From Escherichia phage ph0011, in the sequence record OP557969.1: a DNA stretch of 64,000 nucleotides. The stretch is one strand, 5' to 3'. Position numbers and translations under genes: made by a program. Positions 1,330 through 63,510 of this stretch are shown in pieces. Position 1 is the first letter of the stretch. Each line of letters starts with the position of its first letter. The notes beneath the pieces were generated by a model. That model was not told the DNA's origin. It saw nothing but the letters and a program-made list of their open reading frames with translations, and did not search any database.

Positions 1330-1890
1330 ATGAATGAGATAGAGTTATTATCACACAAGATTAGTACAATAGCTACAGTACTGAACAACAAAAATAAAGT
1401 ACATAGTTCCTTTTTAAGAATTAATAAAGTTGGTAGTAGTTTATATTTGGAAGTAAAAGCGGGTTTTGCAGGACAGTACAATGATAAAATCAAAGAAGAA
1501 GTTAAGGGAAATGAAGATGCTTTCATTGAGGTTTGTGCAACAGTTGGTTCAAATCCAATTTCAGTATCACCGTTAATGCGAAATGAAAATTCAGAATTTG
1601 ATTCCAGTTTCGAAGGTTATTTGTGGTACAATTATGGTGATAATTATTTTATATATCAGAATTCCAAAACGAATTATAGTGAAGAAGGTATAAAATTCAT
1701 TGATCCTTACAATGAAGCAGAAGTATTTCAGAAATCCCTAATATACAATACAAATCAAATGAAGTATCTTATGTTGTTTAGTACAATGCATTTGAATCCA
1801 TTGAAAGATAATTTAAAATTTTTCATTCGTTTAGAATTAGTTGATATTACTTATGATCTTTTAATCCAAGGAAGTAGTTATGAAGTATAA
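1330..1890 (+). CDS. FamA (FQxS) paralog
   Basis: 186-aa ORF; core EAEVFQKSLIYNTN. Confidence 0.75.
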   Translation: MNEIELLSHKISTIATVLNNKNKVHSSFLRINKVGSSLYLEVKAGFAGQYNDKIKEEVKGNEDAFIEVCATVGSNPISVSPLMRNENSEFDSSFEGYLWYNYGDNYFIYQNSKTNYSEEGIKFIDPYNEAEVFQKSLIYNTNQMKYLMLFSTMHLNPLKDNLKFFIRLELVDITYDLLIQGSSYEV

Positions 1891-2194
1891 AATGATGTAT
1901 ACACCATCATTAGTATATGTAGAATTAGAATCAAATGATAATGGGTGGAATTTCATTAAACATATCGATACCAATACATGGTACATGGCTCACTTGGATA
2001 ATAATGTGGTATCAGACCATTTTATGGATTTCAATATCTTAGATGAAGATGAATTTTTCCAAATGCAATTGGTGCTTGACACAAATGGTTTTGATATGGT
2101 ATTATTAAAGAATATACAGAAAGCTGTTGATGAATTAATAGCTGAACATAATTTGAGCGAAATAAGGATTAGTTATGACCTCGAAGTACTGTGA
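1880..2194 (+). CDS. FamA (FQxS) paralog, short variant
   Basis: 104-aa ORF; core EDEFFQMQLVLDTN. Confidence 0.7.
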   Translation: MKYKMMYTPSLVYVELESNDNGWNFIKHIDTNTWYMAHLDNNVVSDHFMDFNILDEDEFFQMQLVLDTNGFDMVLLKNIQKAVDELIAEHNLSEIRISYDLEVL

Positions 2195-2525
2195 GTTTGA
2201 AATTAATAAGTTAAGAGAATGGTTTTATAATATTGAAATTGAGGCCATTCCTTATCATACATATGAACAAAGTGATTTACAATGTATTGATATTAGGGAG
2301 TTGTACAAATATTATCAAAGTGCGTTAGAGATGCATAAATTATTTTTGAGTACGGATTTCTTTATGCAGTATAATTTTGAGGAATATAATAATTATAACT
2401 TAGTACAGAAATACGTAGTAGCAAAGTACATGTACATTCAAGGTATTAAAGGTTGTATTGAATTCAATACTGTTCTTGCTTTAGTTGAGGTAATTTTATG
2501 TACAGCATGTGCATATCTAATTTAG
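2175..2525 (+). CDS. hypothetical protein
   Basis: 116-aa ORF in gene chain; only weak FamA-like bits (YQSALEMHKLF, DFFMQYNF). Confidence 0.5.
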   Translation: MTSKYCEFEINKLREWFYNIEIEAIPYHTYEQSDLQCIDIRELYKYYQSALEMHKLFLSTDFFMQYNFEEYNNYNLVQKYVVAKYMYIQGIKGCIEFNTVLALVEVILCTACAYLI

Positions 2526-3016
2526 AGTTTAGTTTAGATGCAGCCTTTAAATTTGCACATAAGATAGAAACAATATATAGTTTTTTTAGTGAAGTTTATG
2601 AAGTTTGTGCTAAACGATATATCGATACAATAGACATTAGCAATAAGTTCGATGTATGGCACAAAACAATCCAAAGCAAAAAGCAGTGTGCAGCAGTTTT
2701 TAGTGTTTTATCATTTAATCCCAGCAATTGTTACCCAGAGAAGCATGAACGTTATCCCAATGACGACATGTGGTTTGTGTACAAAGAAGATGCTGATATG
2801 TCGTCATTTGAAGTTCCTGATAATTTTGATATCAGTGATTTAACAGAAGAGTGGTGGTTCCAGCAGAATTTAGTACATGATGATATTGATTTATTTTTCT
2901 ATATCGTGTTCAAAATACTTTATCACAACAATATAGTTAAAGATAGTGTATCGTTTTCATGTCTATATATTGATGAGTTGTTCGAAGATATCAAAAATCT
3001 CAAGCCTGTATCGTAA
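2498..3016 (+). CDS. FamA (FQxS) paralog
   Basis: GAGG RBS; N-term FSLDAAFKFAHKI; core TEEWWFQQNLVHDD. Confidence 0.75.
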   Translation: MYSMCISNLEFSLDAAFKFAHKIETIYSFFSEVYEVCAKRYIDTIDISNKFDVWHKTIQSKKQCAAVFSVLSFNPSNCYPEKHERYPNDDMWFVYKEDADMSSFEVPDNFDISDLTEEWWFQQNLVHDDIDLFFYIVFKILYHNNIVKDSVSFSCLYIDELFEDIKNLKPVS

Positions 3017-3031
3017 GATATGGGCTTTTTT
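3002..3031 (+). terminator. weak hairpin + T-run
   Basis: aagcc(3002-3006)/ggctt(3023-3027), large loop, then tttttt. Confidence 0.4.
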
Positions 3032-3033
3032 GT

Positions 3034-3062
3034 TTGACTCAAGTACAAATGAATGGTACAAT
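3034..3062 (+). promoter_or_regulatory. sigma70-type promoter
   Basis: TTGACT - 17 nt - TACAAT, 25 nt upstream of the 3088 start. Confidence 0.55.
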
Positions 3063-3087
3063 GTGAAATCATTTTAAGGAGAACCCT

Positions 3088-7301: not shown

Positions 7302-7663
7302 CATTTGATTATTCGATATACGTTTGCAAGTCCAGAACGGGGTGGGATTTGTGCTGTAATCTTGTCAAGGGTGACTCGGAACATGAGTTGAGTTTATATA
7401 TTCAGTACTCGGATTTGTGTTTTAATTTTATTGATGTATTGTATGATGACTTCGACTATAACTCTGAAAGTATTACAGATTATACAGTACTGGATGATGC
7501 TGAACTATTTCAAGCTTCTTTGGTGTTTGACAAGAATAAGTACTCATGTACAATAGAAGATATGATTTTTATACAAAATGAAATGAAGAGATATGTCAAA
7601 GAAAACACCTTTGATACATCTACACCAACAACAAGTAATTATTATTTCAATACAGGTGAGTAA
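7298..7663 (+). CDS. FamA paralog, short FDKKY subclass
   Basis: ATGA overlap; core DDAELFQASLVFDKNKY. Confidence 0.8.
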   Translation: MTFDYSIYVCKSRTGWDLCCNLVKGDSEHELSLYIQYSDLCFNFIDVLYDDFDYNSESITDYTVLDDAELFQASLVFDKNKYSCTIEDMIFIQNEMKRYVKENTFDTSTPTTSNYYFNTGE

Positions 7664-8189: not shown

Positions 8190-8660
8190 ATGAGTTTTGA
8201 AAGAGCATTAGAAATTGCTAAGTTAATTGATGTATGTAAAAAAGAAATAGTGCTCAACAGACTCAATGGGTATCTATTCAAGGAAGGTAAATCTTATTGC
8301 CGAATGATATACGATGACAGTAGTGAATATATTCACATGTATGAAGAAAATCTTGATGAATCTGAAACAACACTCACTGGGTGTGATGTTAATCTGGAAG
8401 ATAATTACATGTACTTCTGTCGTGATGCTGATATTTTAATACAAGAAACATCATATCAAACTGGGAATCCAGAGGTATATCTTCCATATTCAGTACTGGA
8501 TAATGACTGGGGAAGTGAAGAGTTCTACTTCCAGCAGAATACTATCTACGATGAAGATGTACTTGACAAGCTTGTCATTCTGTGGTACTTTAAGAACACT
8601 GATACTCCTAACTTCTATATAGATTTGGATCTACTAAGAGTTATTAATGAGGATATATGA
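8190..8660 (+). CDS. FamA paralog, ~150-aa SALE/WYFK subclass
   Basis: N-term MSFERALEIAKLI; core SEEFYFQQNTIYDEDVLD; WYFK. Confidence 0.8.
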   Translation: MSFERALEIAKLIDVCKKEIVLNRLNGYLFKEGKSYCRMIYDDSSEYIHMYEENLDESETTLTGCDVNLEDNYMYFCRDADILIQETSYQTGNPEVYLPYSVLDNDWGSEEFYFQQNTIYDEDVLDKLVILWYFKNTDTPNFYIDLDLLRVINEDI

Positions 8661-10764: not shown

Positions 10765-11216
10765 GTTATGAAAGTGCACTAAAAAAGGCTAATGATATTC
10801 TACGCGTTGTTCAGTTCTTAAAGGACTATCCTGTTTATGTAGATGATGAACGCAGAGAAGTTTCTAATGGCACGAAGATTACAATTGATTCTTTATTTGA
10901 CACTAGCAGCAACAACTGTAGTACTATTGAATTAGCATACGATTATATTTCATTGAACAGAAAATATGATGAAGTTACGATAGAGCGTCATGAGGATGAA
11001 GAATCTTTTAAAATTTCTGATATTTTATCCCTGAGTACTGAAGAAGGGTACTTCCAGGGAAGTACTCTTTATAATGAAGAAACACTTGACAATCTATGTA
11101 CATTTAGTGTACTATATCAGAAGTCAGTACTGGATATATTTTATCTAGACACTGAAAAACTTGATAGGTTAGTTGATTTCGTTACTATAGAAGAGGCATC
11201 CTTTGAGAAAAATTAA
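10761..11216 (+). CDS. FamA paralog
   Basis: ATGA overlap; MSYESALKKANDI; core TEEGYFQGSTLYNEETLD. Confidence 0.75.
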   Translation: MSYESALKKANDILRVVQFLKDYPVYVDDERREVSNGTKITIDSLFDTSSNNCSTIELAYDYISLNRKYDEVTIERHEDEESFKISDILSLSTEEGYFQGSTLYNEETLDNLCTFSVLYQKSVLDIFYLDTEKLDRLVDFVTIEEASFEKN

Positions 11217-11739
11217 CATTAATGATTATGATGCATTACAAGATTTATCAAAAAAGATTCGCACTATCGTACCAGTACTGAAGAAATGCAGTACTGGATT
11301 AATCGATCCTAGTACAGTTATTAGTGAGAAGTACAATTTTCATAAACTGTTACAAGGGAATGGTGCATTCCAGAAGTGTGAGATACGTGAGACACACGTA
11401 ATTGATACATCATTGTTTTCTATTGGTGCACCTGTGTCGAATAATACTATTTTCCTAGACAACGCTGGAAATATTCAACAATTAACATTTAAGAAAAGGA
11501 AAAAGAACAATAACATTGGTGTGTATGCGATGAAGTGGGGTCAACCTGATTTGAAGCGTGAAATTCACATCCCTAAGTACAATTACAATGCATTTGACGA
11601 ACAGTGTTTTCAACTATCGTGTACTGACCCTGACTATGCTATCATTCAGTTCTATATGGAATTGCAGATTGCATTTAACAGTAATTTGTATATTAACTTA
11701 TTGGCGATGAACATCGATGAAGTATTCAAAAACATTTAA
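11203..11739 (+). CDS. FamA paralog
   Basis: TTG start after GAAGAGG; core FDEQCFQLSCTDPD. Confidence 0.65.
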   Translation: MRKININDYDALQDLSKKIRTIVPVLKKCSTGLIDPSTVISEKYNFHKLLQGNGAFQKCEIRETHVIDTSLFSIGAPVSNNTIFLDNAGNIQQLTFKKRKKNNNIGVYAMKWGQPDLKREIHIPKYNYNAFDEQCFQLSCTDPDYAIIQFYMELQIAFNSNLYINLLAMNIDEVFKNI

Positions 11740-12104: not shown

Positions 12105-12648
12105 GCTTGACTTAGCATTTGAACGTGTAAAAATCTTCATTGAAACTTATCTTATGCACAAAACTATATTGAAAACAAAAGGAATATGGTTCACTGATAA
12201 ATTTCTTACTATGGCTAAGAGAGATGGAATGGAACATCTTTACTGTACAGATAGTGCCAGAATTTCAGTACTGAATTATGATGAAAGTGTATCATCTGGT
12301 ACTAGTTTAATTTCGACATATAATGATAATATTACTAGTATTATGTATACTAAAAATTGTTCAAATGTTTCTGTATATAAAAACTGTGATAGTTCATTAT
12401 CGTACAATATCGATCAGTACTTTTATCCTAATACAGAAGAAAACATCTTTCAAAATAGTCTTATATTGGATGATACATCTAATAAATGTATATATCTTTA
12501 TAATAAATTAAAAGAGTACATTGATAACAGTTCAATTAGAACTAATACATTCAGTGTTTCTGTTTTAAATTATAATAAGGAAGATGTGTTTTATTATACA
12601 GAAATTGAAAGAATACATACAATGTATAAGGAACTACTATGTTATTAA
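12094..12648 (+). CDS. FamA paralog
   Basis: ATG after AAGGA (track 12052..); ELDLAFERVKIF; core TEENIFQNSLILDD. Confidence 0.7.
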   Translation: MYNELDLAFERVKIFIETYLMHKTILKTKGIWFTDKFLTMAKRDGMEHLYCTDSARISVLNYDESVSSGTSLISTYNDNITSIMYTKNCSNVSVYKNCDSSLSYNIDQYFYPNTEENIFQNSLILDDTSNKCIYLYNKLKEYIDNSSIRTNTFSVSVLNYNKEDVFYYTEIERIHTMYKELLCY

Positions 12649-13241
12649 ATGCAAATAAATGTTGTAGTGCTGATGTTCATGTATATTTTAAGAAATTAGT
12701 CAATGATATCATCTATATGCAAGAAATCATTTATCACAAAAGAATGGACTTAGAAAAAGCATTAGCTCAGTTCTCTTTTAATCTAGATGGTGATATATCT
12801 TTAGATGGTGATGGGTTACGTATAACATTAGACAGCAATTCCAATAGAGTTTTCTTTTGGATAGATAATAAATTATGTTCCTCAATTTGTCGCACTTTTT
12901 ATAACCCTATTTCGGACTTGTATCAATTGGTTTATTCGAAAGGTGCGGTTGAAGCATCATATGGTGATAGTTTTGCACTAGGGAAGTCCATTCCATATAT
13001 GCAAACATTTGATATTGAATTAGTCAGTACTGATGAAGATGTAATGTTCACAAATGATCTAACGATGCAGCGTGAATCTGCAATGAGATATATAACAAAT
13101 TCAATGCATACCTTCTTTAAAATAGCAGAATTTGATAATGTATATATATCAAATGTAAATATTTTCACTGACTTGTGTCAGTTTTTGAGAAATATTTTTG
13201 ATTTTGATGAAAGATATTCTAAGTTTTATACTGAGGTTTAA
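12639..13241 (+). CDS. FamA-like, decayed core
   Basis: 200-aa ORF; DEDVMFTNDLTMQ at the expected position. Confidence 0.6.
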   Translation: MLLNANKCCSADVHVYFKKLVNDIIYMQEIIYHKRMDLEKALAQFSFNLDGDISLDGDGLRITLDSNSNRVFFWIDNKLCSSICRTFYNPISDLYQLVYSKGAVEASYGDSFALGKSIPYMQTFDIELVSTDEDVMFTNDLTMQRESAMRYITNSMHTFFKIAEFDNVYISNVNIFTDLCQFLRNIFDFDERYSKFYTEV

Positions 13242-13246
13242 ATCAA

Positions 13247-13931: not shown

Positions 13932-13938
13932 GGTTTTT

Positions 13939-14475: not shown

Positions 14476-14501
14476 CCCCCACCAAATCTTTGTGATATAA
14501 T
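14472..14501 (+). promoter_or_regulatory. early-type sigma70 promoter (TGTGATATAAT class)
   Basis: TTGACC ... tgTGtGATATAAT; -10 at 14496-14501. Confidence 0.65.
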
Positions 14502-49224: not shown

Positions 49225-50643
49225 ATGAGCATTTTAGCAATTATTGAAAGCATTAAAAATACTAGTAGTACACTAGGCAAAAAAGCTATCCTTGAACAAA
49301 ATAAAGATAACTTAACTTTACAAAAAGTACTGAAATATACTCTCGACCCTTCAATTGTAAGTGGCTATAAGAAACTCCCTGCCGCTGATGACGTAGATCA
49401 ACATATGACGTTAGATGAAGCAATTGATAAGCTAGAATGCATTTACAAGCGTAGCTTGACAGGAAATGCGGGGCGTGATTTCATTGCTTCAGTACTGGGT
49501 TCAGTATCAGAAGATGATCAGGAAGTTCTCCGTAAAATGCTCACTAAGAACCTTGATTGTGGTATCCAAGAAAAGAACTGCAATGATGTGTTTGGTAAAG
49601 GATTCATCAAAGACGAACCATATATGCGTTGTTCTTTGATTGACAAAAAGACTGCAAAGAACATTAACTTCAAAGACTATGGCTATGCAGTCTCTGAGGT
49701 GAAAATGGATGGTCAGTACTTGAACCACGTTGTCATTAATGGTTCATTAACTTCTACATCCCGTAATGGTAAACTCTACGACTTCCTGGGTTGTCGTGAT
49801 GGTGAGATGGCAGGTCTTGCTCACATCATCCAAAGTAAAGATGAACGTTTTAGTAGTGGTGTAGTCTTTATGGGTGAAGGTGTAGTACTGGATACTGATG
49901 GAGAAACCATTCTCCCGCGTACTACAGGTAATGGTATTATTCAGAAAGCTGGAAAAGATTCAATCACTCAAAGTGAAGCAATGCGTACTGTATTCGTTCT
50001 ATGGGATGTTGTTCCATATGATGCATTCAGTGAAGGTGTATGGAATGTAAAACGTAAAGAACGCCGCGAGATCTTAGTTGGTGCAATCAATGAACTCGGT
50101 AGTGAATTTGTTCGTATGGTTGGGTTCCGTAAAGTTAACAACATCAAAGAAGCATTTGAGTACAACAGTGAACTGATGAACAAAGGTGAAGAAGGTTCAG
50201 TACTGAAATGTGAAGATGGTATCTGGAAATCTCATACTTCTCCTAAGCAGTTGAAAATGAAACTTAAGATGCAATTGGATTTGCGTATTGTTGGTTTCAA
50301 TGAAGGTGAAGGTAAGCGTAAAGGTAGCCTTGGTTCTTTACAACTGGAAAGTGCATGTGGTACACTAAAAGTAAATGTAGGTACAGGTATCCGTGAAAAA
50401 GATGCCGAATGGACGTTTAAAACCATTTGGGAAAGAATGCAAGAACTCATTGGTAAAGTAGTAACCGTGGAGTGCAATGATATAGTACAAGATAAGCGTA
50501 CTGGCGAACCATCACTATTTTTACCTGTGTTTATTGAATTTAGATTTGACAAAAACACTTGCGACGATTATACTCGTATCTTAGAAATTCGTGATAGTGC
50601 AGTTGAAGTGTTTTCAAACAGTATTATTGAAGTTTTAGGTTAA
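49225..50643 (+). CDS. 30: ATP-dependent DNA ligase (T4 gp30-like)
   Basis: KMDGQ adenylation motif (SEVKMDGQYL); N-term MSILAIIESIKNTSSTLGKKAILEQNKDN resembles the T4 ligase N-term; ATG after AAAGGAA. Confidence 0.85.
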   Translation: MSILAIIESIKNTSSTLGKKAILEQNKDNLTLQKVLKYTLDPSIVSGYKKLPAADDVDQHMTLDEAIDKLECIYKRSLTGNAGRDFIASVLGSVSEDDQEVLRKMLTKNLDCGIQEKNCNDVFGKGFIKDEPYMRCSLIDKKTAKNINFKDYGYAVSEVKMDGQYLNHVVINGSLTSTSRNGKLYDFLGCRDGEMAGLAHIIQSKDERFSSGVVFMGEGVVLDTDGETILPRTTGNGIIQKAGKDSITQSEAMRTVFVLWDVVPYDAFSEGVWNVKRKERREILVGAINELGSEFVRMVGFRKVNNIKEAFEYNSELMNKGEEGSVLKCEDGIWKSHTSPKQLKMKLKMQLDLRIVGFNEGEGKRKGSLGSLQLESACGTLKVNVGTGIREKDAEWTFKTIWERMQELIGKVVTVECNDIVQDKRTGEPSLFLPVFIEFRFDKNTCDDYTRILEIRDSAVEVFSNSIIEVLG

Positions 50644-50662
50644 CCATTTATTGGAGGTAATT

Positions 50663-51454
50663 ATGAAATTTGTCGTAACATCTGATGTACACGGTAGTAC
50701 TGATTACCTCCATAGTGGGGATTACAGCGATACAGTACTGATTATTGCGGGAGACTTCGATGAAGTTAAACGAAGTCGTTATCGTACTGGTATTGAATCA
50801 CTGTGTAAGCAGTTCAAGAATGTAGTTCTGGTTCCAGGAAACCATGAGTATTATGGTTCAAACATTCACAAAACGCATCGAGTACTGTCCGATATGCAAG
50901 ATGAGATTCCAAATTTCATCTTTTTGCAAAACAAATTTGTATGGCTGGATGGTGTACTGCTCGTTGGTAGCACACTATGGACTGACTTTGATAAAGGCAA
51001 TGCACTGGTTAAGTTTGATGCTCAACAAAAGATGAATGATTATAAACACATTCGTCATGGAACAACATCAGAACCGTGGAAACGTAAACTCAAACCTGAT
51101 GATGTTGAGTTCATGCATTATCAGGATAAACAATTTATCAAAAATTCAGTTGATACAGTTCGTCTAATGAATGATAATGATATCAAGGTTGTGGTGGTAA
51201 CACATCATGCACCAAGTTATCAGAGTGTATCTCCGAGATACAAGAATGACTCACTGAATGGATGTTATTGTTCTGATATGGACCAGTACATCGAAGATTT
51301 GGGTGCTGATGTTTGGATTCATGGTCACGTTCATAGTAGCTTTGACTACCACATTGGTAAGACACGTATCATTTGTAATCCACGAGGCTATGAATCGTAC
51401 AGTGGTGCTTGTGAGAATTTTGATTACAATCCAAAATTTGTAGTTGAAATCTAA
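50663..51454 (+). CDS. calcineurin-like metallophosphoesterase
   Basis: ATG after GGAGG (track 50651..); SDVHGS, AGDFDE, GNHEYYG, VVTHHAP, GHVH. Confidence 0.8.
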   Translation: MKFVVTSDVHGSTDYLHSGDYSDTVLIIAGDFDEVKRSRYRTGIESLCKQFKNVVLVPGNHEYYGSNIHKTHRVLSDMQDEIPNFIFLQNKFVWLDGVLLVGSTLWTDFDKGNALVKFDAQQKMNDYKHIRHGTTSEPWKRKLKPDDVEFMHYQDKQFIKNSVDTVRLMNDNDIKVVVVTHHAPSYQSVSPRYKNDSLNGCYCSDMDQYIEDLGADVWIHGHVHSSFDYHIGKTRIICNPRGYESYSGACENFDYNPKFVVEI

Positions 51455-53875: not shown

Positions 53876-54400
53876 ATGAAATATACACAACTAAACAACA
53901 ATGATACTAATATATGGTTAGGAAATATATCTAAAACACTTGAATTGGTTAAATTCACACTACAAAAATCGGTCGATATTGAAATTAATATTAAGAAAGA
54001 AATATTAAAACATTATCATAAAAATAAATTTTACAAGTTTATTTCTAAATTAATCTATGGGTTATATGATATTGAAGATATTTGTATTGGGTACAGTACT
54101 GGTATTTGTTTCACTACTGATGGTATAATGAATGATTTAAATTTTCGACTAACCCGCGAAGAACAAGATTTTCGTATATTTTGTGATAATATCATGAATG
54201 AAGATAAAATCCAATTTGTGATTGAATTGAGTCAGATATGGTCTGTATATGCAGACAAACCATTCGAAATTAATGAATCAGATATATTAAACTATATTCG
54301 AATAATGAAAATTCATGATTTATGTAAAAACGCATTACTAAGTATTGGAGCCTATGATGAAGCATACGACGTGGTTAAAGATAGCAGAAGTGGTTGCTGA
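53876..54400 (+). CDS. hypothetical protein
   Basis: AGAGGA RBS; 174 aa. Confidence 0.6.
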   Translation: MKYTQLNNNDTNIWLGNISKTLELVKFTLQKSVDIEINIKKEILKHYHKNKFYKFISKLIYGLYDIEDICIGYSTGICFTTDGIMNDLNFRLTREEQDFRIFCDNIMNEDKIQFVIELSQIWSVYADKPFEINESDILNYIRIMKIHDLCKNALLSIGAYDEAYDVVKDSRSGC

Positions 54401-55356: not shown

Positions 55357-58029
55357 TTAAGCACTGATTGTTACAGTTGCAGTATCTTTTTTATTACCAT
55401 CCACTGTAGTCACTGTAATGATTACAGAACCTTCTTCTAGAGCAGTTACTAATCCATCATCACTAATAGATACTTTAGTAGGTTTATCTGCACTATAAGT
55501 TACTGATTTGTTAGTTGCTTTAGCTGGTAGAACTTCTGGAACTAGTTGAACTGTTTTAGTTCCTGATAGTGAAAGTTCAGTAGTTTTAGGTGTTAAACTA
55601 ACACTGGATACTGGAACTGGAATATTAACGATTACTGATGTTTGACCAGTAACATCACTACCATCAGCGGCAGTAGCGATAATATTTGCAGTACCATTAG
55701 TTAGTGCAGTTACGATACCAGTATTAGCATCTACTTTAGCAATTTCTGGAGCACTGGATGACCAAATTACATTTTTATTGGTTGCATCACTTGGGGTAAT
55801 TGCAGCAGCCATTTGTTTAGTTGCATTCAATGTAGTCAAAGTTTGATCTTTAGGAGTTACATCAATTGCAGTTACTGGCACTGGAATATTAACAGTAATA
55901 ACACCTTGACCTGTTTTACCACTTCCATCAGCAGCAGTTGCGATAATGTTTGCAGAACCGTTAGTTAACGCAGTTACAACACCAGTACTAGCATCTACTT
56001 TCGCTACAGCAGGTTTACTGGAAGACCATGTTACAGATTTATTTGTTGCGTTAGTTGGAAGAACTTCAGCAGCCATTGCTTGAGTTGCGTTAACAGCAGT
56101 CAATGTTTTAGTTGCTGGAGTAACATTAATAGATGCGACTGGAACTGGAATTGCTACAGTTACCGCACATTTTGCAGTTTTTGCTCCATCAGCAGTTGTT
56201 ACTGTGATATCAGCAGTGCCATTTGCTACAGCAGTGATTAAACCAGTTGGACTAACAGTTGCCACTCCATCAGCAGAAGTACTATAAGTTACTGCTTTGT
56301 TGGTAGCATTAGGTGGTAGTACAGTTGGTGTTAGTTGTTGAGTATCACCGACTGAAGTTAATTTAGCACTTGTTGGAGATACTGATACACTTGCAACAGG
56401 AACTGGAATGTTAACAGTTACCACGCAAACTTTAGAAAATCCACCATCAGATGTGGTTGCTGTAATATTTGCAGTACCGTTTGCAACAGCAGTGATTAAA
56501 CCAGTTGGACTTACCGTTGCGACACCCTCAGCAGAAGTAGTGTATGAAATATCTTTACGACGAGCGTTATCTGGAATAACAGATGCAGTTAGTTGTTGAG
56601 TAGCACCTACAGAAGTTAGGGTTGCTGTCAACGGAGTCATATTAATTCCAGTTACTGGGATCGTTACATCAATCACTGATTCAGCAGTTTTAGCACCATC
56701 ATCAGTGGTAACAGTAATAGTTGTAGTACCGTTATCAACCGAAGTTACTAGACCAGTATTACTAACTTTTGCTACGTCTGGATATGAAGAAACATATGAA
56801 ACTGCTTTATTGGATGCAGTTGCAGGAGCAACGGTTGTTTCTAATTGTTTAGTATCACCTAATGTTGAGAATGTATAAGTACTAGGAGTCATTGTGACAC
56901 CAGATACTGGTGTTTTCACTGTGATTGTAGTAGTGTCCGTTTTAGCACCATCTTCGGTTGTAGCTGTAATCACCACTGTGCCGTTAGCCACACCAGTTAC
57001 TAGACCAGAAGTAGGGTTAACAGTTGCTATATCAGGTGTTGCTGAAGACCACGTGACGTTTTTATTAGTTGCATCATCAGGAGATATTGTAGCAGTTAAT
57101 TGTTGAGTACTGCCAACGTTAATTGATGCAGTTTTAGGAGAAACAACAACACCACTAACTGGAGTTGTTACAGTAACAGTACATTTTGAAACAAATGAAC
57201 CATCAACTGTAGTTGCAATTACATCAGTACTGCCATCTGCAATACCAGTTACCATACCAGTTGGACTTACAGTTGCGAAGCGTGGTATACTGGATGACCA
57301 AATAACACTTTTATCACTTGCATCATCGGGTGATACGGTAGCTGTTAGTTGATGAGTTTTACCAACACCAAGAGATAGAGTTGAAGGAGAAACAACAACA
57401 CCACTAACTGGAGTTGTTACAGTAAATGCACAAACATCGGTGAAACCACCATCATGAGTAGTAACTGTTACATTTGCATTACCATTAGCACGGGCAATTG
57501 CTAAACCAGTTTGAGCATCAACTTCAACTATTGTTGGAGCAGAGGAACTATAACTTACTGTTGGATCATTTGCATAATCTGGATTAATTGTAGCTGATAG
57601 TTGTTGTGTGCTACCAACTTTAAGTGCTACTACTTTGGGTGAAATAATAACACCATTAACTGGTGTAGTATAATCACGTTTAACCACACGACCATTGTTC
57701 AATTTAATAATACGACCCATATAAAGAGTAGCATATCCCTTACTAATCCCATCATCTACATAAATCATAAATGAATTGTCTTGAACCATATTAATTGCGT
57801 CTACTGGCTTAACAGTATTTGGAATGTCGATACCACGGGTATCATACCAACACATGGAAACTTTGTAATATATATCACCATTATCATTGATGAGATCATA
57901 CACGTTACTGGAACGTTGACGGTTAATATATAAAGTTTCGGTTAATACCTTACCATCGATTTTAGCGACAGAAACTTTAATACCACCAATACCAAATGGC
58001 AATTTACCTTCACTAGATATTGCTTTCAT
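55357..58029 (-). CDS. Ig-like (Big_2) repeat virion-surface/adhesin-type protein
   Basis: 890 aa; ~121-aa N-domain then 9 repeats starting (T/I)PV..V..P....L..G.TQQL..; AAAGGAAAG RBS; only minus-strand gene. Confidence 0.8.
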   Translation of the reverse strand: MKAISSEGKLPFGIGGIKVSVAKIDGKVLTETLYINRQRSSNVYDLINDNGDIYYKVSMCWYDTRGIDIPNTVKPVDAINMVQDNSFMIYVDDGISKGYATLYMGRIIKLNNGRVVKRDYTTPVNGVIISPKVVALKVGSTQQLSATINPDYANDPTVSYSSSAPTIVEVDAQTGLAIARANGNANVTVTTHDGGFTDVCAFTVTTPVSGVVVSPSTLSLGVGKTHQLTATVSPDDASDKSVIWSSSIPRFATVSPTGMVTGIADGSTDVIATTVDGSFVSKCTVTVTTPVSGVVVSPKTASINVGSTQQLTATISPDDATNKNVTWSSATPDIATVNPTSGLVTGVANGTVVITATTEDGAKTDTTTITVKTPVSGVTMTPSTYTFSTLGDTKQLETTVAPATASNKAVSYVSSYPDVAKVSNTGLVTSVDNGTTTITVTTDDGAKTAESVIDVTIPVTGINMTPLTATLTSVGATQQLTASVIPDNARRKDISYTTSAEGVATVSPTGLITAVANGTANITATTSDGGFSKVCVVTVNIPVPVASVSVSPTSAKLTSVGDTQQLTPTVLPPNATNKAVTYSTSADGVATVSPTGLITAVANGTADITVTTADGAKTAKCAVTVAIPVPVASINVTPATKTLTAVNATQAMAAEVLPTNATNKSVTWSSSKPAVAKVDASTGVVTALTNGSANIIATAADGSGKTGQGVITVNIPVPVTAIDVTPKDQTLTTLNATKQMAAAITPSDATNKNVIWSSSAPEIAKVDANTGIVTALTNGTANIIATAADGSDVTGQTSVIVNIPVPVSSVSLTPKTTELSLSGTKTVQLVPEVLPAKATNKSVTYSADKPTKVSISDDGLVTALEEGSVIITVTTVDGNKKDTATVTISA
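55360..57666 (-). repeat. 9 tandem ~255-270-bp coding repeats (Big_2 domains)
   Basis: Adjacent units near-identical at DNA level, e.g. 56210-56280 vs 56470-56540 (..cagcagtgattaaaccagttggac..). Confidence 0.75.
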
Positions 58030-58329: not shown

Positions 58330-58935
58330 ATGAAACTATTCTTGAAAGAGATTGTACAAACCGTTGTTTTAATCGCTGCATTAAATTTTCCAGCAGCGGC
58401 AGAAGTTTCAAAAAAAGCATCTGTTCTTCTATTAAATGAACAGGTTGTATCAATGGATGGTGAACTAAATGATAATACGGTACAAGAAGTAGAGCAGTTG
58501 TGGAAAGAAAAAAGATTTAAAATTTTAACAATTACATCACCTGGGGGTGATTTTGATGCTGGTATTAAAATGGCAAATTTTGTTAGAGACAATGGTATAA
58601 ATTTAATTGTTTCTAAATATTGCAATTCGGCATGTACTGTGGTATTCTTTAGTGTATCCCCAGAAAAGCGATATATGACAAATCAATCAGTACTGGGATT
58701 GCATAATATTTCAATCAAAAGTAACGTTAAAGATATGGATCATACTTTCGTATCTGTTAGACAACTATCATCATTTACTGAAGAAATGGCAACAAAAGTA
58801 GGATTTTTATTTACACTATATTCAGCTAATGGTATTCCACCTAGCATTCTATATAAAGTTAGTCGTTCACGTGGTGAAGATGTTGTTATCTTAACAAAAA
58901 CAGACCTAATAAATTACGGTTCAGTCAATCCATGA
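58330..58935 (+). CDS. secreted ClpP/NfeD-fold serine-protease-like protein
   Basis: Signal peptide ..VVLIAALNFPAAAE; ITSPGGDFDAG, CNSACTV, GLHNIS resemble the ClpP-class layout. Confidence 0.55.
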   Translation: MKLFLKEIVQTVVLIAALNFPAAAEVSKKASVLLLNEQVVSMDGELNDNTVQEVEQLWKEKRFKILTITSPGGDFDAGIKMANFVRDNGINLIVSKYCNSACTVVFFSVSPEKRYMTNQSVLGLHNISIKSNVKDMDHTFVSVRQLSSFTEEMATKVGFLFTLYSANGIPPSILYKVSRSRGEDVVILTKTDLINYGSVNP

Positions 58936-61377: not shown

Positions 61378-61387
61378 GAGTTTAAAA

Positions 61388-61708
61388 ATGTCTTACTCTA
61401 TGTTTTTGGATGACATTCGTGATGCAAAACAATATTACCCTAATCAAGATATGGTAGTATGTCGTGATTTTAACAGTGCGTGTGAATATGTTGTTAAAAA
61501 TGGAATTCCAGCATTTGTATCATTTGACCATGACTTGGGTGATATGAGTGGAGACGAAAAAACTGGATATTCTTTTGCTAAATTTCTTATTGATTATATG
61601 TTTGATAATAATATTAAAGAACCGTTTGAGTACTTTGTGCACAGTAGTAACCCAGTTGGTAAAGTTAACATTGAAACATACTTAAACAATGGATTTAATG
61701 CATTATGA
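61388..61708 (+). CDS. receiver-like (cyclic-phosphate-processing REC-like) domain protein
   Basis: MFLDDIRD ... VSFDHDLGD ... EKTGYSFAKFLIDY; matches my memory of that phage domain, unverified. Confidence 0.45.
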   Translation: MSYSMFLDDIRDAKQYYPNQDMVVCRDFNSACEYVVKNGIPAFVSFDHDLGDMSGDEKTGYSFAKFLIDYMFDNNIKEPFEYFVHSSNPVGKVNIETYLNNGFNAL

Positions 61709-62007
61709 TTCAAACACATATTAAAAGTATCATTTGCACTATACTACTAGGTGTAGGAGTTCTATGGTTCAGTAATTATCACGAGAACACTAAGCGTACA
61801 AATATTCACTATAATACCGCAGAAGTTGTAAGTTTAGGACAATGTAGTGAGTACAAATGTTCGTTTATGTACAAAACCAGTAATGGTGAAGTACGTAATG
61901 GACTATCTAGTGAACCAGTTTCGATTGGTCAAATTGTTTACCAGGAGTGCTGGGAAGAAAAGGTTCGAGGTTCACGATGTTATGTTGAATACGAACCAAA
62001 AATGTAA
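61705..62007 (+). CDS. small membrane-anchored protein (1 TM)
   Basis: ATGA overlap; IICTILLGVGVLWF. Confidence 0.55.
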   Translation: MIQTHIKSIICTILLGVGVLWFSNYHENTKRTNIHYNTAEVVSLGQCSEYKCSFMYKTSNGEVRNGLSSEPVSIGQIVYQECWEEKVRGSRCYVEYEPKM

Positions 62008-62034
62008 TAATAACATGAGTCAATAATAATAGCC

Positions 62035-62052
62035 GAGTACAAGGATGTACTC
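62035..62052 (+). promoter_or_regulatory. hairpin in the phoH leader
   Basis: GAGTACA-agga-TGTACTC perfect 7-bp stem, no U-tract; 19 nt before the ATG. Confidence 0.3.
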
Positions 62053-62070
62053 ACAATTCAAGGATGTTTT

Positions 62071-63510
62071 ATGAAAAAATATACAATTGACACAAACGTA
62101 CTACTATCTGATCCAAATGCATCTGTTGCTTTTGATGGTGCTGCAATCATTCTACCATTTACAGTACTGGAAGAATTGGATTCGATTAAGAGTCGCAATG
62201 TTGATGTTTCACGTGATGCTCGTGTTGCGATTCGTAACATTGAAGCAATTATTGCAGAGGCATCACATAATGAGATTAGTTGTACTGGTGTTAATATTGC
62301 TGATGTTCATACCAATATGAGTCCTGAAAGCAAATTGTTTGTTATTACAAACGAAGAAGCTGAAGCACTAATTCGTACTAAGGCAATTGAAGATAAAGTT
62401 CAAACACTTCTCAAAAGTTCTGTACCAGATGATAAAATTATCTTAGTCGCTTTAGCAACTGATTCAGTACTGGTTACCCGTGATATCAATATGCGTATCA
62501 AGGCTCTTAGTTATGGAGTTGAAGTACAGGATTATCGTCATGATGTGGTTATCGGTGATAGCGATCTAATGCACGTAGGTCAACATCATCTCGATATCGA
62601 TTTCTGGGCAGAATTCAGTGGGATTGAAAATGCTGAAATTAAATCTGAAAAAACAGGTCGCCGCCTGTATCATTATATCCCAACACATCTAATCAAAGAT
62701 CTTCTTCCACAAAATCTTTGTATTGGTGACTATCTATATGATAATGCTGATGTGCTCTTTGTTTACGAAGGTCAGTCTGCAATCGAAGAAGATGATGGTA
62801 GTCTAACACCAGAAGATATTTTGGTCTTCCAAGATATTGGTCAATCTGTTGCATTACGTGCTAATGTATGGGATATTAAAGCTAAGAATGTCAAACAAGC
62901 ACTAGCTATTAATAGTATTCTCGATCCCGATGTACATCTAACAGTTCTACTAGGTTCTGCTGGGACAGGAAAAACACTAATTACGATTGCTACTGCACTA
63001 GAGTTAGTTCTGGAAAAACGTAAATACGACCGTATTATCTTCTCTAAAACACAAGATTCACAGTTTGAAGATATCGGATTCTTGCCTGGTTCAGAGGCCG
63101 AGAAAGTGATTCCATTTTGTGGTCCAGCGATTGACGCACTAGAGTACCTACATAAAGATGATGCAAATCCACAAGGTAGCATTGAGGAAATCATGAAACG
63201 TAATGTTATCCAGTTCAAAGCATTGAACTTTATTCGTGGTCGTTCTTTTGCCAATACAATTCTAATTGTGGATGAAGCACAGAACTTAACACCAGCCCAG
63301 CTAAAAACTGTCTTGACAAGAGCCGGAGAAAACTGTAAAGTAATCATACTTGGTAACCTAGCACAGATCGATAACAAGTTTATCAGTCCAGTAAACAGCG
63401 GTCTAACTTATGTAACTGAGAAATTTAAAAATTGGTCTGGTTGTCGTATCATTGAATTGGAAGGTGTTGTTCGTTCACCACTTGCTGAATTTGCTGAAGA
63501 AAATATGTAA
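62071..63510 (+). CDS. phoH: PIN-domain PhoH-like ATPase
   Basis: N-term PIN-like (YTIDTNVLL..), Walker A GSAGTGKT, Walker B IVDEAQN; 479 aa. Confidence 0.85.
   Translation: MKKYTIDTNVLLSDPNASVAFDGAAIILPFTVLEELDSIKSRNVDVSRDARVAIRNIEAIIAEASHNEISCTGVNIADVHTNMSPESKLFVITNEEAEALIRTKAIEDKVQTLLKSSVPDDKIILVALATDSVLVTRDINMRIKALSYGVEVQDYRHDVVIGDSDLMHVGQHHLDIDFWAEFSGIENAEIKSEKTGRRLYHYIPTHLIKDLLPQNLCIGDYLYDNADVLFVYEGQSAIEEDDGSLTPEDILVFQDIGQSVALRANVWDIKAKNVKQALAINSILDPDVHLTVLLGSAGTGKTLITIATALELVLEKRKYDRIIFSKTQDSQFEDIGFLPGSEAEKVIPFCGPAIDALEYLHKDDANPQGSIEEIMKRNVIQFKALNFIRGRSFANTILIVDEAQNLTPAQLKTVLTRAGENCKVIILGNLAQIDNKFISPVNSGLTYVTEKFKNWSGCRIIELEGVVRSPLAEFAEENM

Follow-up and report, generated by a model that had tools for sequence, protein, structure and literature searches.

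The DNA analysed here (the window, 64,000 nucleotides of Escherichia phage ph0011) carries one palindrome, CAGTACTG, many times over, which raises the question of what keeps it there. A preliminary description had reported at least 35 copies where about 0.6 were expected by chance, and about 140 copies of the core AGTACT against about 20 expected. The recount confirmed all 35 start positions exactly and found no others in the window (Table 1). In 100 dinucleotide-preserving shuffles of the window CAGTACTG occurred 0.77 ± 0.99 times (maximum 5), and Markov models of order 1, 2 and 3 predicted 0.71, 1.84 and 4.17 copies. AGTACT was present 143 times against 16.7 ± 4.4 in the 100 shuffles and is the most frequent hexamer of the window; CAGTACTG is its joint top octamer (tied). 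The C…G flanks were complete around 35 of the 143 hexamers, half present around 62 and absent around 46.

Table 1. Features of the window. Copies are exact matches to CAGTACTG; the state in PBECO4 is taken from the alignment where given.
Feature	Position	Strand	Context	PBECO4
AGTACT population	1377..62471	.	143 dispersed hexamers, clade-wide core motif (shuffles, flank table)	
Orphan phage N6-adenine DNA methyltransferase	30403..30927	+	174 aa; candidate writer or reader	
Nucleotidyltransferase-like gene	30924..31457	+	overlaps methyltransferase stop by 4 bases	
CAGTACTG	1376..1383	.	ORF 1330-1890 (+), T-V-L	beyond alignment
CAGTACTG	7485..7492	.	within ORF 7298-7663	same
CAGTACTG	8491..8498	.	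ORF 8190-8660, S-V-L	same
CAGTACTG	11125..11132	.	ORF 10761-11216, S-V-L	CTGTACTA
CAGTACTG	11273..11280	.	ORF 11203-11739, P-V-L	CAGTACTC
CAGTACTG	11289..11296	.	ORF 11203-11739, C-S-T-G	same
CAGTACTG	12266..12273	.	ORF 12052-12648, S-V-L	same
CAGTACTG	13025..13032	.	ORF 12639-13241, V-S-T-D	same
CAGTACTG	15689..15696	.	ORF 15465-15827, I-S-T-E	same
CAGTACTG	20858..20865	.	ORF 20538-21047, T-S-T-D	same
CAGTACTG	22323..22330	.	ORF 22173-22775, Q-Y-W	same
CAGTACTG	25825..25832	.	ORF 25649-26122, I-S-T-E	same
CAGTACTG	27624..27631	.	ORF 27517-27903, F-S-T-G	same
CAGTACTG	28878..28885	.	ORF 28311-29159, Q-Y-C	same
CAGTACTG	30447..30454	.	methyltransferase gene 30403-30927, F-S-T-G	TAGTACTG
CAGTACTG	31052..31059	.	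nucleotidyltransferase-like gene 30924-31457, T-S-T-D	same
CAGTACTG	31464..31471	.	ORF 31460-31753, T-V-L	same
CAGTACTG	31816..31823	.	within ORF 31734-32033	same
CAGTACTG	32187..32194	.	ORF 31969-32625, D-S-T-A	same
CAGTACTG	33069..33076	.	ORF 32914-33198, F-S-T-V	same
CAGTACTG	34839..34846	.	non-coding, flanked by ORFs 34512-34802 and 34944-35240	same
CAGTACTG	38984..38991	.	ORF 38841-39530, F-S-T-E	same
CAGTACTG	40670..40677	.	RNA ligase gene 39792-40934, F-S-T-D	same
CAGTACTG	43138..43145	.	small ORF 43016-43192, S-S-T-D	same
CAGTACTG	44727..44734	.	ORF 44656-44985, F-S-T-D	CAGTACTA
CAGTACTG	47875..47882	.	ORF 47595-48014, A-V-L	same
CAGTACTG	48762..48769	.	ORF 48011-49213, P-V-L	same
CAGTACTG	49490..49497	.	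DNA ligase gene 49156-50643, S-V-L	same
CAGTACTG	50198..50205	.	DNA ligase gene 49156-50643, S-V-L	same
CAGTACTG	50733..50740	.	metallophosphoesterase gene 50651-51454, T-V-L	same
CAGTACTG	54094..54101	.	ORF 53876-54400, Y-S-T-G	same
CAGTACTG	57225..57232	.	minus-strand 890-aa ORF 55357-58029	
CAGTACTG	58688..58695	.	ORF 58330-58935, S-V-L	
CAGTACTG	62162..62169	.	ORF 62071-63510, T-V-L	
CAGTACTG	62465..62472	.	ORF 62071-63510, S-V-L	

Coding sequence makes up 92% of the window and holds 134 of the 143 AGTACT sites; no position bias inside genes was found in the window. The excess might simply follow from protein sequence, codon-pair usage or paralogous gene families, or arise from errors in assembly or sequencing. 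The window does contain many paralogous ORFs of ~190 aa, and some of the signal does come from codon and amino-acid usage: within-gene synonymous codon shuffles, preserving each protein and the per-gene codon usage, kept 49.3 ± 5.4 AGTACT, against 17 at first order and 143 in the real sequence. However, the same shuffles yielded only 4.3 ± 1.5 copies of CAGTACTG (maximum 9) against the real 35, which places the excess at the DNA level. The spread of sites over three frames, both strands and non-coding DNA, together with the same excess in ten independently sequenced genomes (see below), completes the refutation of this reading, to which we give next to no probability. The earlier statements that the word is no protein motif and that selection acts on the DNA itself withstood these shuffles, the latter agreeing also with per-site conservation above background. 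The motif is conserved outside coding sequence too, since the intergenic copy is identical in PBECO4.

By crude gene calls, CAGTACTG is read xCA-GTA-CTG in 14 copies, xxC-AGT-ACT-G in 15 and CAG-TAC-TG in 2, close to the 17, 16 and 2 given previously; 2 copies are intergenic and 2 lie on the opposite strand. The motif overrides codon usage. As had been suspected for the Val-Leu copies, 28 of the 68 Leu codons that follow GTA are CTG (41%), against 7% of all Leu codons in the window, and Ser-Thr is spelled AGT-ACT in 59 of 123 cases (16.5 expected); Thr-Ser occurs 64 times versus the 123 of Ser-Thr. The motif more plausibly causes this raised codon and dipeptide usage than results from it.

The window derives from a Rak2-like (Asteriusvirus-type) jumbo phage with ~88% identity to PBECO4/121Q. 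Every Rak2-like genus sampled showed a 9–15-fold (about ten times) enrichment of AGTACT, with observed/expected counts in ten genomes of four genera of 143/17, 161/13, 144/12.5, 104/10.5, 113/9.9, 163/11.7, 90/10.6, 182/11.8, 97/9.8 and 114/10.8. An excess was not found in PA5oct, XacN1, Atu_ph07, T4 or E. coli, and the hexamer is avoided in the relatives XacN1 and PA5oct. A bias inherited from the host does not account for the counts, as a 50-kb sample of E. coli K-12 held 3 AGTACT where 4.8 were expected. Judged by these comparisons, the Rak2-like phages (Asteriusvirus, Mimasvirus, Eneladusvirus and Alcyoneusvirus) share the signal as a derived trait, clade-wide and not peculiar to the window. 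The real unit is the hexamer, common to the four genera, with CAGTACTG as the best-flanked class in the window's lineage. CBB and GAP32 favour A…T flanks around AGTACT, not C…G, and the C…G flank is a lineage-specific preference. Such variation is expected of a co-evolving phage-encoded reader.

Between the window and PBECO4, AGTACT was conserved in 78% of cases versus a background of 49%, and CAGTACTG in 87% versus 41%. Other lineage pairs gave 84/57, 60/29, 56/24 and 71/37% (AGTACT conserved/background). Window–PBECO4 retention with zero, one and two C/G flanks was 43/64/85% and 61/79/97% (background 41–49%). These figures show purifying selection on the sites, which is stronger the better a site fits the extended consensus. 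The PBECO4 branch lost none of 57 ancestral sites and gained 11, and the window's own lineage is pruning weak sites by way of a peculiar burst of AGTACT-to-AGTTCT changes. A neutral molecular drive, by which methylation-linked very-short-patch-type mismatch repair or biased gene conversion recreates AGTACT, would mimic purifying selection and suits the gains without losses; a repair-drive model was proposed for HIP1 of cyanobacteria by Elhai (PMC4390886). We consider it quite improbable for these phages. One-off neighbours of AGTACT are not depleted (all at or above about 0.65x; AGTATT, AATACT, AGTGCT and AGCACT each at 1.0–1.8x), which argues against repair drive, position-5 C-to-T changes are not elevated among the losses, two bases outside the hexamer grade its conservation, and the missing GCGC, if converted, would not account for the ~260 extra GTAC per 64 kb.

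Half-sites contribute multiplicatively and the sites act singly, without phasing. The CAGTACTG count is near the prediction from independent half-sites (35 observed, 30.4 expected), the outer flanks of AGTACT are independent of each other (162 vs 147), and one good half-site has a 2.5–3x effect and both 11x. A monomer reading CAGTAC on each strand separately would equally fit this multiplicative behaviour. Such near-independent half-sites suit strand-wise (C)AGTAC recognition by an enzyme of replication or recombination, which might work on each strand separately or on the duplex; gp61-type primase, a nickase, the phage's type II topoisomerase and a Chi-like attenuator of a phage nuclease are examples. 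The sites would then offer recombination-dependent replication of so large a genome many points of entry. Genes for gp61/gp41-type primase-helicase, topoisomerase II, gp46/47, UvsX and UvsW are present in the clade (PMC5259590), and Chi-like action has been suggested for HIP1 (bioRxiv 10.1101/2024.09.10.611283). AGTACT is also dense (~1 per 220–450 bp in Rak2-like phages) and fairly even in every region sampled, comprising early, replication and structural modules. Nevertheless, we find this explanation unlikely: a fully palindromic GTAC core is unexpected in a strand-specific signal, cutting both strands of the palindrome would produce double-strand breaks, and gene conversion should eliminate a site that is cut, not conserve it. 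It also sits badly with known primases, for which a trinucleotide suffices, and with Chi sites, which are asymmetric and orientation-biased. The DnaG-type CTG priming site put forward in the preliminary description found no support, as 5'-CTG is not conserved in CBB/GAP32 with their A…T flanks.

Phages are known to block host cell division. About a thousand sites per genome could do so during infection by hijacking and activating a host protein, most obviously the nucleoid-occlusion factor SlmA. The 12-bp consensus of SlmA, GTGAGTACTCAC, is centred on AGTACT (PMC3020112). SlmA binding strongly depends on G1, T2, A4 and G5, with a purine required at position 3 (PMC3020112); of the phage sites, however, 11% carry G at position 1, and position 3 is C (44%), not a purine. 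Moreover, GAGTACTC is the rarest flank class (2/143 in the window, 8/666 pooled), SBS-like 12-mers (3 mismatches at most) amount to 21 versus 21.1 expected, and flank preference varies among phage lineages that share enterobacterial hosts. This flank analysis largely refuted a SlmA hijack, which is very improbable.

In 434 kb, 18 of the 64 hexamer palindromes had zero copies and 7 more stood at or below 0.13x; GCGC was at 0/245 and AGTACT at 11x. AGTACT is probably protected in these genomes, because they have lost every GCGC and about 25 further hexamer palindromes. Protection by itself accounts for tolerance of AGTACT, not for its 11-fold enrichment. Our preferred reading, held at rather less than even chances, sees AGTACT as a mark of the HIP1 kind that a symmetric phage-encoded protein modifies or binds. 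A sequence-specific protein with two-fold symmetry would read AGTACT on duplex DNA. The reader would most probably be a DNA-modifying enzyme, making the hexamer an epigenetic 'self' signal of the HIP1 type; marked sites would be spared by restriction and would also be used in a genome-wide process that requires sites a few hundred bases apart. At a guess, this might be recombination-dependent replication or repair, or the telling apart of phage and host DNA. HIP1 is likewise a short, over-abundant palindrome with a role still unexplained, and its earlier naming as the closest analogue was upheld, the excess being exact, at the DNA level and without a host counterpart. Nested palindromes, orphan methyltransferases, outer-position deviations, site conservation and methylation-dependent function have all been described for HIP1 (PMC4390886, PMC5861425, bioRxiv 10.1101/2024.09.10.611283).

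The sites may instead bind or nucleate a non-enzymatic phage protein (nucleoid-like, protective, or for packaging or condensation) without base modification, dispersed sites letting a 350-kb genome be coated or organised, for example by a factor linked to the capsid inner body. We judge this somewhat unlikely. The selection is graded like affinity, half-sites are additive and flank preference differs by lineage, all as such binding would have it, and phAPEC6 is reported to have an inner body and ordered layers of DNA (PMC7247149). The sites are spaced a little more evenly than at random in all eight relatives (CV 0.79–0.92 vs 0.99 ± 0.08), with maximum gaps shorter than random. Helically phased or cooperative AGTACT spacing was looked for, though, and none was found, and the escape from restriction where ~25 palindromes were purged would go unexplained unless the bound protein protects.

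For a modified HIP1-like mark, the candidate writer is the conserved orphan methyltransferase, with the A of GTAC as its presumed methylation target. Its product matches Pfam PF05869 Dam (E=7e-33) and, just under the cut-off, TIGR01712 (E=2e-27). Against this candidate, the characterised PF05869 members are known to methylate GATC, and the family was found in 1,766 phage records. Orthologues are annotated or were detected in PBECO4, A4, Kaldavass, XbC2, CBB and Serratia phage BF. The gene is possibly dispensable, because tblastn with Salmonella phage SD-1_S14 matched only its last 33 codons. Its pairing with the nucleotidyltransferase-like gene is conserved across genera; the latter has weak NMN/NaMN adenylyltransferase similarity only (E ~3e-4), and a link to the motif is speculative. 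RaK2 DNA was reported to be methylated, with data not shown there (PMC3622015). The other modification genes found are lineage-restricted (Mom in RaK2, a PF01555 methyltransferase in Yen9-04).

The 35 copies of CAGTACTG listed for the window in the preliminary description were each an exact match, and a recount of the window found no further copies. In dinucleotide-preserving shuffles this octamer occurred 0.77 ± 0.99 times (maximum 5), and its core hexamer AGTACT, of which the window holds 143 copies, 16.7 ± 4.4 times; Markov models of order 1, 2 and 3 predicted 0.71, 1.84 and 4.17 copies of the octamer. With 0.55-0.77 copies expected, the excess of CAGTACTG is 45-63-fold. AGTACT was the top hexamer and CAGTACTG the joint top octamer of the window, which has a G + C content of 32.5%. 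In a stricter null model, synonymous codons were permuted inside each gene, preserving both the proteins and the codon usage per gene. This codon-preserving comparison, suggested in the preliminary description, did not reproduce the excess: it yielded 4.3 ± 1.5 copies of CAGTACTG (maximum 9), 49 ± 5 of AGTACT and 327 ± 12 of GTAC, against 35, 143 and 451 observed. Since the synonymous shuffles fall this far short, a protein or codon by-product was rejected, and the probability that the AGTACT excess is any by-product or artefact is negligible.

The copies were also claimed to be independent of reading frame, and all three frames were indeed occupied: 14 copies read xCA-GTA-CTG, 15 read xxC-AGT-ACT-G and 2 read CAG-TAC-TG, the remaining copies lying in non-coding DNA and in one minus-strand gene. 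The bias towards CTG for leucine after GTA, noted earlier as well, amounted to 28 of 68 cases, against 7% CTG among all leucine codons of the window. Ser-Thr was encoded by AGT-ACT in 59 of its 123 occurrences (16.5 expected), and this dipeptide was twice as frequent as Thr-Ser (123 versus 64). The pressure for AGTACT outweighs codon usage and even the choice of amino acid; the excess of AGTACT and CAGTACTG is confirmed and is a property of the DNA. A bias inherited from the host, the other source considered in the preliminary description, was rejected on the count in an E. coli K-12 sample (see the table below).

The window is about 87-88% identical to the Escherichia jumbo phages PBECO4, 121Q, slurp01, G17 and Sharanji of the genus Asteriusvirus (genomes of about 350 kb), and no deposited record closer than these was found. 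Its genes lie almost all on the + strand. For comparison within the clade, samples of 30-50 kb were taken from nine other Rak2-like genomes, spanning early, replication and structural modules, with first-order expectations.

AGTACT in samples of Rak2-like phages and of other genomes
Genome	Observed	Expected
PBECO4	161	13
A4	144	12.5
JNE01	104	10.5
Erwinia phage Kaldavass	113	9.9
Xanthomonas phage XbC2	163	11.7
Yersinia phage fHe-Yen9-04	90	10.6
Pectobacterium phage CBB	182	11.8
Cronobacter phage GAP32	97	9.8
Klebsiella phage RaK2	114	10.8
PA5oct (more distant relative)	3	14.3
XacN1	0	9.2
Atu_ph07	3	6.3
T4	6	9.3
E. coli K-12	3	4.8

The other AGTACT-rich genera have almost no similarity to the window at the DNA level. 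CAGTACTG reached about 12-88 times its first-order expectation in the nine further samples and was the leading octamer, or close to it, in seven; its excess was 12-15-fold in Yen9-04 and GAP32, where other flank variants outranked it. No substitute dominant palindrome was seen in PA5oct, T4, XacN1, Atu_ph07 or E. coli K-12. When viral contigs were screened for closely spaced AGTACT triplets, no dispersed enrichment appeared beyond Rak2-like contigs among the at least 120 loci listed, and dense AGTACT in other viral contigs consisted, among the matches listed, of tandem protein repeats. The AGTACT excess is a synapomorphy of Rak2-like jumbo phages and not a peculiarity of the window. In a test for amelioration, homing-endonuclease genes had a near-normal AGTACT density (16 versus 21.6) and contained no GCGC. 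A 494-amino-acid ORF of the window without a Pfam match, which is missing from the syntenic PBECO4 annotation, has no AGTACT across 1.5 kb where 3.3 would be expected at the local density, which suggests a recent insertion.

Pooling of the ten samples (434 kb) gave an 11.1-fold enrichment of AGTACT, 1.5-3-fold for words with one good half-site (AGTACV, BGTACT) and 1.2-fold for TGTACA. Given GTAC, the inner flanks were nearly independent (1311 observed versus 1120 expected); given AGTACT, the outer C and G were independent (162 versus 147 pooled, 35 versus 30.4 in the window). Because the flanks act independently, selection need not have targeted CAGTACTG as such, and the octamer is not a unit in its own right but comprises the sites with two optimal halves. 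Flanks were symmetric, C…G followed by T-rich/A-rich sequence; information content was about zero past ±3 nt, where the remaining bias was weak and T-rich/A-rich. Asteriusvirus, RaK2, XbC2 and Kaldavass favoured an outer C…G, CBB and GAP32 an outer A…T, and Yen9-04 was mixed. Near-independent half-sites are what would be expected of additive reading by a two-fold-symmetric dimer; alternatively, CAGTAC may be read strand-wise. NAGTACTG and CAGTACTN were each enriched about 10-13-fold and most internal one-nucleotide variants about 2-fold or less. Changes between genomes were mostly at hexamer positions 1 and 6, with the exception of a burst of A to T changes at position 4 in the window lineage.

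The short-range spacing of AGTACT (samples of 30-64 kb) was near-exponential with mild regularity. It showed no helical phasing or favoured pair distance, and no cooperative or helically phased site pairs were found. In eight of eight relatives tested, several of whose loci are mutually homologous and therefore not independent tests, spacing was slightly more even than random (CV 0.79-0.92 versus 0.99 ± 0.08), and the maximum gaps in these eight were shorter than random; the window was no more regular than random (CV 1.04). That the sites belong to a repeat element, tandem or dispersed (MITE, protein repeat), was rejected on their unique contexts and the information of about zero beyond ±3 nt. 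About 25 ORFs of 140-200 amino acids, many overlapping by a few bases, form a head-to-tail array in the window, evidently the paralogous families FamA, FamC and FamD of the preliminary description. Three pairs of AGTACT lie exactly 29 bp apart, probably as a result of the paralogy of this array.

Individual sites were compared between the window and PBECO4, which are 86.7% identical over the compared sequence and have diverged by 23% at third codon positions. AGTACT of the window was conserved in PBECO4 in 78% of cases versus 49% for arbitrary hexamers, and CAGTACTG in 87% versus 41% for arbitrary octamers; in four other lineage pairs conservation of sites and background was 84/57, 60/29, 56/24 and 71/37%. 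PBECO4 sites with zero, one and two C/G flanks were kept in the window in 43%, 64% and 85% of cases (two versus zero flanks, Fisher p = 1.3e-4), and window sites were kept in PBECO4 in 61%, 79% and 97%. In comparisons between genera, for which synonymous change is saturated, 12 AGTACT positions in orthologous genes coincided, versus 0.15 if sites were placed at random; part of this coincidence could be due to dipeptides that are conserved and subject to the same encoding bias. As judged from these alignments, the pattern is that of purifying selection on putative protein-recognition sites of graded quality. A neutral repair drive could in principle produce an excess of AGTACT, and would deplete the words that it converts. 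AGTATT, AATACT, AGTGCT and AGCACT stood at 1.0-1.8 times expectation in all genomes and the one-mismatch neighbours showed no depletion, the opposite of the prediction for very-short-patch-type repair, so that such a drive is disfavoured and improbable. Deamination of GCGC into GTAC was also rejected: the roughly 260 extra GTAC per 64 kb are unreachable in this way, and GTGC/GCAC show hardly any enrichment. The excess of AGTACT is real, overwhelming in statistical terms, situated at the DNA level and upheld by selection on single sites.

Gains and losses were polarised with A4 and JNE01 as outgroups. On the PBECO4 branch none of 57 ancestral AGTACT was lost and 11 were gained; on the window branch 18 were lost and 6 gained. 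Single-step losses on the window side were A to T at position 4 (AGTACT to AGTTCT) in 23 of 37 cases, and never A to G or A to C at this position, although genome-wide A/G differences (705) were nearly as common as A/T differences (860). Fourteen of the 23 were synonymous GTA to GTT changes; among background GTA codons, 36 became GTT and 28 became GTG or GTC (Fisher p = 7e-4 for the contrast). Another six replaced Thr by Ser, exceeding the three synonymous losses open to that frame, and three replaced Tyr by Phe. The reverse-complement product AGAACT, a radical amino-acid change whatever the frame, arose once. Losses in the window lineage fell on poorly flanked sites, whose retention equalled the background, and spared the CAGTACTG octamers. 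Because of this burst the window contains 57 AGTTCT versus 15 expected; no such burst was seen in the other lineage pairs. A to T at position 4 is the sole substitution that destroys the central TpA of the dyad and is also, in each of the three frames, either synonymous or conservative. We tentatively read the burst as weak sites being actively pruned with the smallest cost to the proteins. It may instead reflect a mutational hotspot, peculiar to this lineage, at a modified adenine. A sequencing artefact at a modified base was rejected as the source of AGTTCT, the changes being strand-specific and filtered by protein constraints.

The same ten samples (434 kb) were purged of other palindromes. 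GCGC was absent with 245 expected, and 18 of the 64 palindromic hexamers had zero copies, among them CAGCTG and CTGCAG (43 expected each), GTCGAC (40), TGCGCA (38), GAGCTC (31), CTCGAG and TCCGGA (29 each), CGTACG (27), and GCTAGC and AGCGCT (22 each). Seven further palindromic hexamers were at or below 0.13-fold; CGATCG stood at 1 versus 29 expected, and all palindromic hexamers except AGTACT summed to 6238 versus 8036 expected. PA5oct and T4 lacked this purge of GCGC and hexamers. The total absence of GCGC could stem from host restriction or from a phage-encoded, GCGC-directed nuclease acting on host DNA. GTAC flanked by G/C was strongly avoided, with GGTACC at 8 versus 33 in the pooled samples and, in the window, GGTACC at 0 versus 4.3 and CGTACG at 0 versus 2.7. 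With CGTACG and GGTACC avoided and AGTACT enriched 11-fold, the sign of selection on GTAC therefore flips with one flanking base pair. Restriction-site avoidance was rejected as an account of AGTACT: this word is enriched 11-fold in genomes purged of GCGC and of 25 other hexamer palindromes. Its density of 2.2-4.5 per kb extrapolates to roughly a thousand copies per genome. A clade that purges palindromes would hardly keep about a thousand of them unprotected, and XacN1 and PA5oct avoid AGTACT; this is indirect evidence that the sites are probably shielded, for which modification would be the simplest means.

The sequences show that the signal exists, how it is built, how it is distributed among the phages and that selection acts on it; the identity of its reader, and what reading achieves, we infer. 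A candidate modifier or reader is encoded in the window by an orphan N6-adenine methyltransferase gene (PF05869, E = 7e-33; also TIGR01712), whose stop overlaps the start of a nucleotidyltransferase-like gene with weak similarity to NMN/NaMN adenylyltransferases. This pair is kept in PBECO4, A4, Kaldavass, XbC2 and CBB. Since the two genes are adjacent across genera, a functional partnership of their products is hinted at. An orthologue of the methyltransferase with 43% identity occurs in the Eneladusvirus Serratia phage BF; the PF05869 family has 1,766 phage records, and by sequence no PDB relative of the window protein was found. The genes of the pair share 4 bases in the window and likewise in PBECO4 and A4; in Mimasvirus-like genomes a few bases separate them. 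Among the proteins of RaK2 is a true member of the Mom family of adenine modification (PF25680, E = 4e-37), whose nearest relatives are in Vibrio phage ICP1-like and Enterococcus phages. As a clade-wide reader or writer the Mom family was rejected, PF25680 being limited to the Klebsiella branch of the clade, and so was a PF01555 methyltransferase beside the candidate non-coding RNA (see below) in Yen9-04, which is unique to that phage.

Coordinates of features in the window and in sampled loci (L) of Rak2-like relatives
Feature	Sequence	Position (strand)
Orphan PF05869 methyltransferase gene	window	30403-30927 (+)
Nucleotidyltransferase-like gene	window	30924-31457 (+)
Methyltransferase/nucleotidyltransferase-like pair	window	30403-31457
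	L001	25450-26501
	L002	23374-24431
	L004	12461-13546
	L005	21120-22205
	L007	21104-22207
Mom-family protein gene	L009 (RaK2)	35506-36090
ncRNA candidate, about 500 nt	window	29225-29740 (+)
	L001	24280-24800
	L004	11275-11790
	L005	19935-20450
	L006	19830-20420
	L007	19915-20400
	L008	19660-20330
Head-to-tail ORF array	window	~12000-25600
AGTACT pairs 29 bp apart	window	9839/9868, 10391/10420, 19832/19861
AGTTCT from position-4 losses (23 sites)	window	span 6762-53056, e.g. 6762, 9399, 27727, 28192, 30852, 34982, 50824, 53051
494-aa ORF without AGTACT	window	35297-36781 (+)

The explanation that we tentatively put forward, as possible rather than probable, resembles that of HIP1 (GCGATCGC), the highly iterated palindrome of cyanobacteria: AGTACT would be the target of a symmetric modifier or reader of the phage, for which the PF05869 methyltransferase is the candidate, and the marked sites would serve a genome-wide DNA transaction as a protected 'self' signal. 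The sites may instead bind a non-enzymatic architectural or protective protein, which we consider unlikely, or be acted on by a replication or recombination enzyme, which appears more doubtful still.

HIP1 had been named as the closest analogue, and this comparison holds: the phage motif has four of six general HIP-like features, namely excess of a palindromic octamer (judged by a threshold of at least about 15-fold genome-wide), frame independence, site conservation and outer-position variants. Both motifs are nested palindromic octamers (GATC within CGATCG within GCGATCGC; GTAC within AGTACT within CAGTACTG) with a tens-fold excess in all reading frames that outweighs codon usage. In both, sites are conserved between genomes above background, single-nucleotide variants cluster at the outermost positions, and orphan DNA methyltransferases occur in the same genomes; a methyltransferase specific for the inner palindrome is a further HIP-like feature, for which the phage enzyme is a candidate. 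For HIP1, the nested palindromes, the tens-fold excess in all frames, the conservation of sites, the outer deviations and the link to orphan methyltransferases have been described (PMC4390886, PMC5861425). Newer evidence suggests that HIP1 influences recombination in a way that depends on methylation and is Chi-like or uptake-related (bioRxiv 10.1101/2024.09.10.611283, 10.64898/2026.06.24.733823). Unlike HIP1, the phage word is AT-rich and resides in a lytic jumbo phage instead of a cellular chromosome; its conserved unit is the hexamer, with outer flanks drifting among lineages; the genome is otherwise purged of palindromes, and methylation is only a candidate mark. A periodicity of 10-90 kb is reported for HIP1, whereas the phage samples span just 30-64 kb, and the role in DNA uptake now proposed for HIP1 would be meaningless for a virion-borne genome. 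Membership in HIP1 proper was rejected, the word not being GCGATCGC and the replicon being a phage; the motif is an analogue only.

The uptake sequences of Pasteurellaceae (USS) and Neisseriaceae (DUS) occur about once per kb, within genes and in all frames, shape peptides and are fairly evenly spaced. They are likewise dispersed short words upheld by the preference of a protein machine for DNA bearing them, but are non-palindromic 9-12-mers read during transformation, whereas AGTACT has dyad symmetry and phages have no uptake step. Chi sites (RecBCD/AddAB) are also over-represented short words in coding DNA, tagging 'self' for a nuclease/recombinase; they are asymmetric and strongly orientation-biased with respect to replication, and the enrichment of AGTACT (11-fold, about 50-fold for the octamer) is far above theirs. 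A Chi-like asymmetric, strand-biased signal was rejected on the palindromic motif and its symmetric flanks.

Hijacking of host SlmA by the phage sites was considered as well, since the SlmA-binding sequence (SBS) GTGAGTACTCAC is palindromic, has an AGTACT centre and is read by a symmetric dimer. The E. coli chromosome has about 24-52 SBS, versus roughly a thousand phage sites (extrapolated). At phage AGTACT sites G1 was present in 11% and R3 in 38% (SlmA numbering), GAGTACTC was the rarest flank class, and SBS-like 12-mers numbered 21 versus 21.1 expected. An SlmA half-site needs G1, T2, R3, A4, G5 and Y6 (PMC3020112); with these flanks disfavoured and SBS-like 12-mers not enriched, SlmA sites were rejected and the hijack is very improbable. 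The phage motif is identical in sequence to the targets of ScaI, RsaI and CviQI-type enzymes (AGTACT, GTAC), and XacN1 and PA5oct avoid AGTACT as if it were such a target. In phages, depletion is the norm for restriction targets, whereas AGTACT is 11-fold enriched and its sites are individually conserved. Chlorella viruses have GTAC-specific adenine methyltransferases. For mollivirus, AGTACT is discussed as one of the targets of orphan methyltransferases, the site of ml_135 being printed once as AGCACT and elsewhere as AGTACT (PMC7253447). RaK2 DNA behaves as methylated, with data not shown there (PMC3622015), and ten enzymes, GTAC-related ones not among them, cut fEgEco12 DNA normally (PMC13070987). 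Phage G17 has been sequenced by SMRT on the PacBio RSII (PMC6563267). No report of the AGTACT motif was found in accessible papers on CBB, RaK2, Sharanji, fEgEco12, phAPEC6, G17 and PA5oct, nor a mention in restriction-avoidance surveys.

More broadly, though we regard this as rather unlikely, sequence composition might constitute a self/non-self code, in which about 25 palindromes and GCGC are erased and AGTACT is multiplied to about 1 per 300 bp, marked by the methyltransferase and read by the replication, repair or packaging apparatus of the phage. Erasure would spare the phage from host restriction enzymes or from its own shredder of host DNA, and the mark on AGTACT would be a positive 'self' signal for the machinery of recombination-dependent replication, repair or packaging, in Rak2-like jumbo phages that would manage without a phage nucleus and without wholesale base substitution. 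The matter bears on how 350 kb of DNA is protected in jumbo phages that form no nucleus. Highly iterated palindromes in cyanobacteria have lacked an explanation for three decades, and the phages are an independent occurrence with a different word. If the self/non-self reading is true, it would mark the first HIP-like system of a virus and offer the first chance of tracing the reader, among about 550 genes. The phages are lytic on E. coli, Klebsiella, Cronobacter, Erwinia, Pectobacterium, Yersinia and Xanthomonas, can be cultured and, with about 550 genes, recoded. Natural variation is at hand in the flank preferences of lineages, in the apparent shedding of weak sites by the window lineage and in PA5oct and XacN1, which lack or avoid the motif. 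The reader and purpose of an iterated palindrome are therefore directly testable. Practical reach extends to ScaI/RsaI mapping, to recoding and synthesis for therapy and to k-mer-based prediction of host or taxon.

Salmonella phages SD-1_S14, SD-6_S16 and SD-2_S15 (similarity-search hits H50-H52 and H128) are Asteriusvirus-like with genomes of 310-322 kb, and cover the syntenic 20 kb only as 14-19 fragments. In SD-1_S14, tblastn matches just the last 33 codons of the methyltransferase. These look like naturally or experimentally reduced genomes, and could reveal whether the methyltransferase is dispensable. Upstream of the methyltransferase operon, a 600-nt gap holds a candidate structured ncRNA, the sole part of window 20-40 kb matched in other genera by megablast (73-87% identity). 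No match to Rfam 15 was obtained, even at E<=1. A TATAAT-like box of its own accompanies it, its invariant blocks alternate with indel-rich hairpins, and RNAalifold predicted 86 pairs, of which 32 are retained via compensatory changes on both sides.
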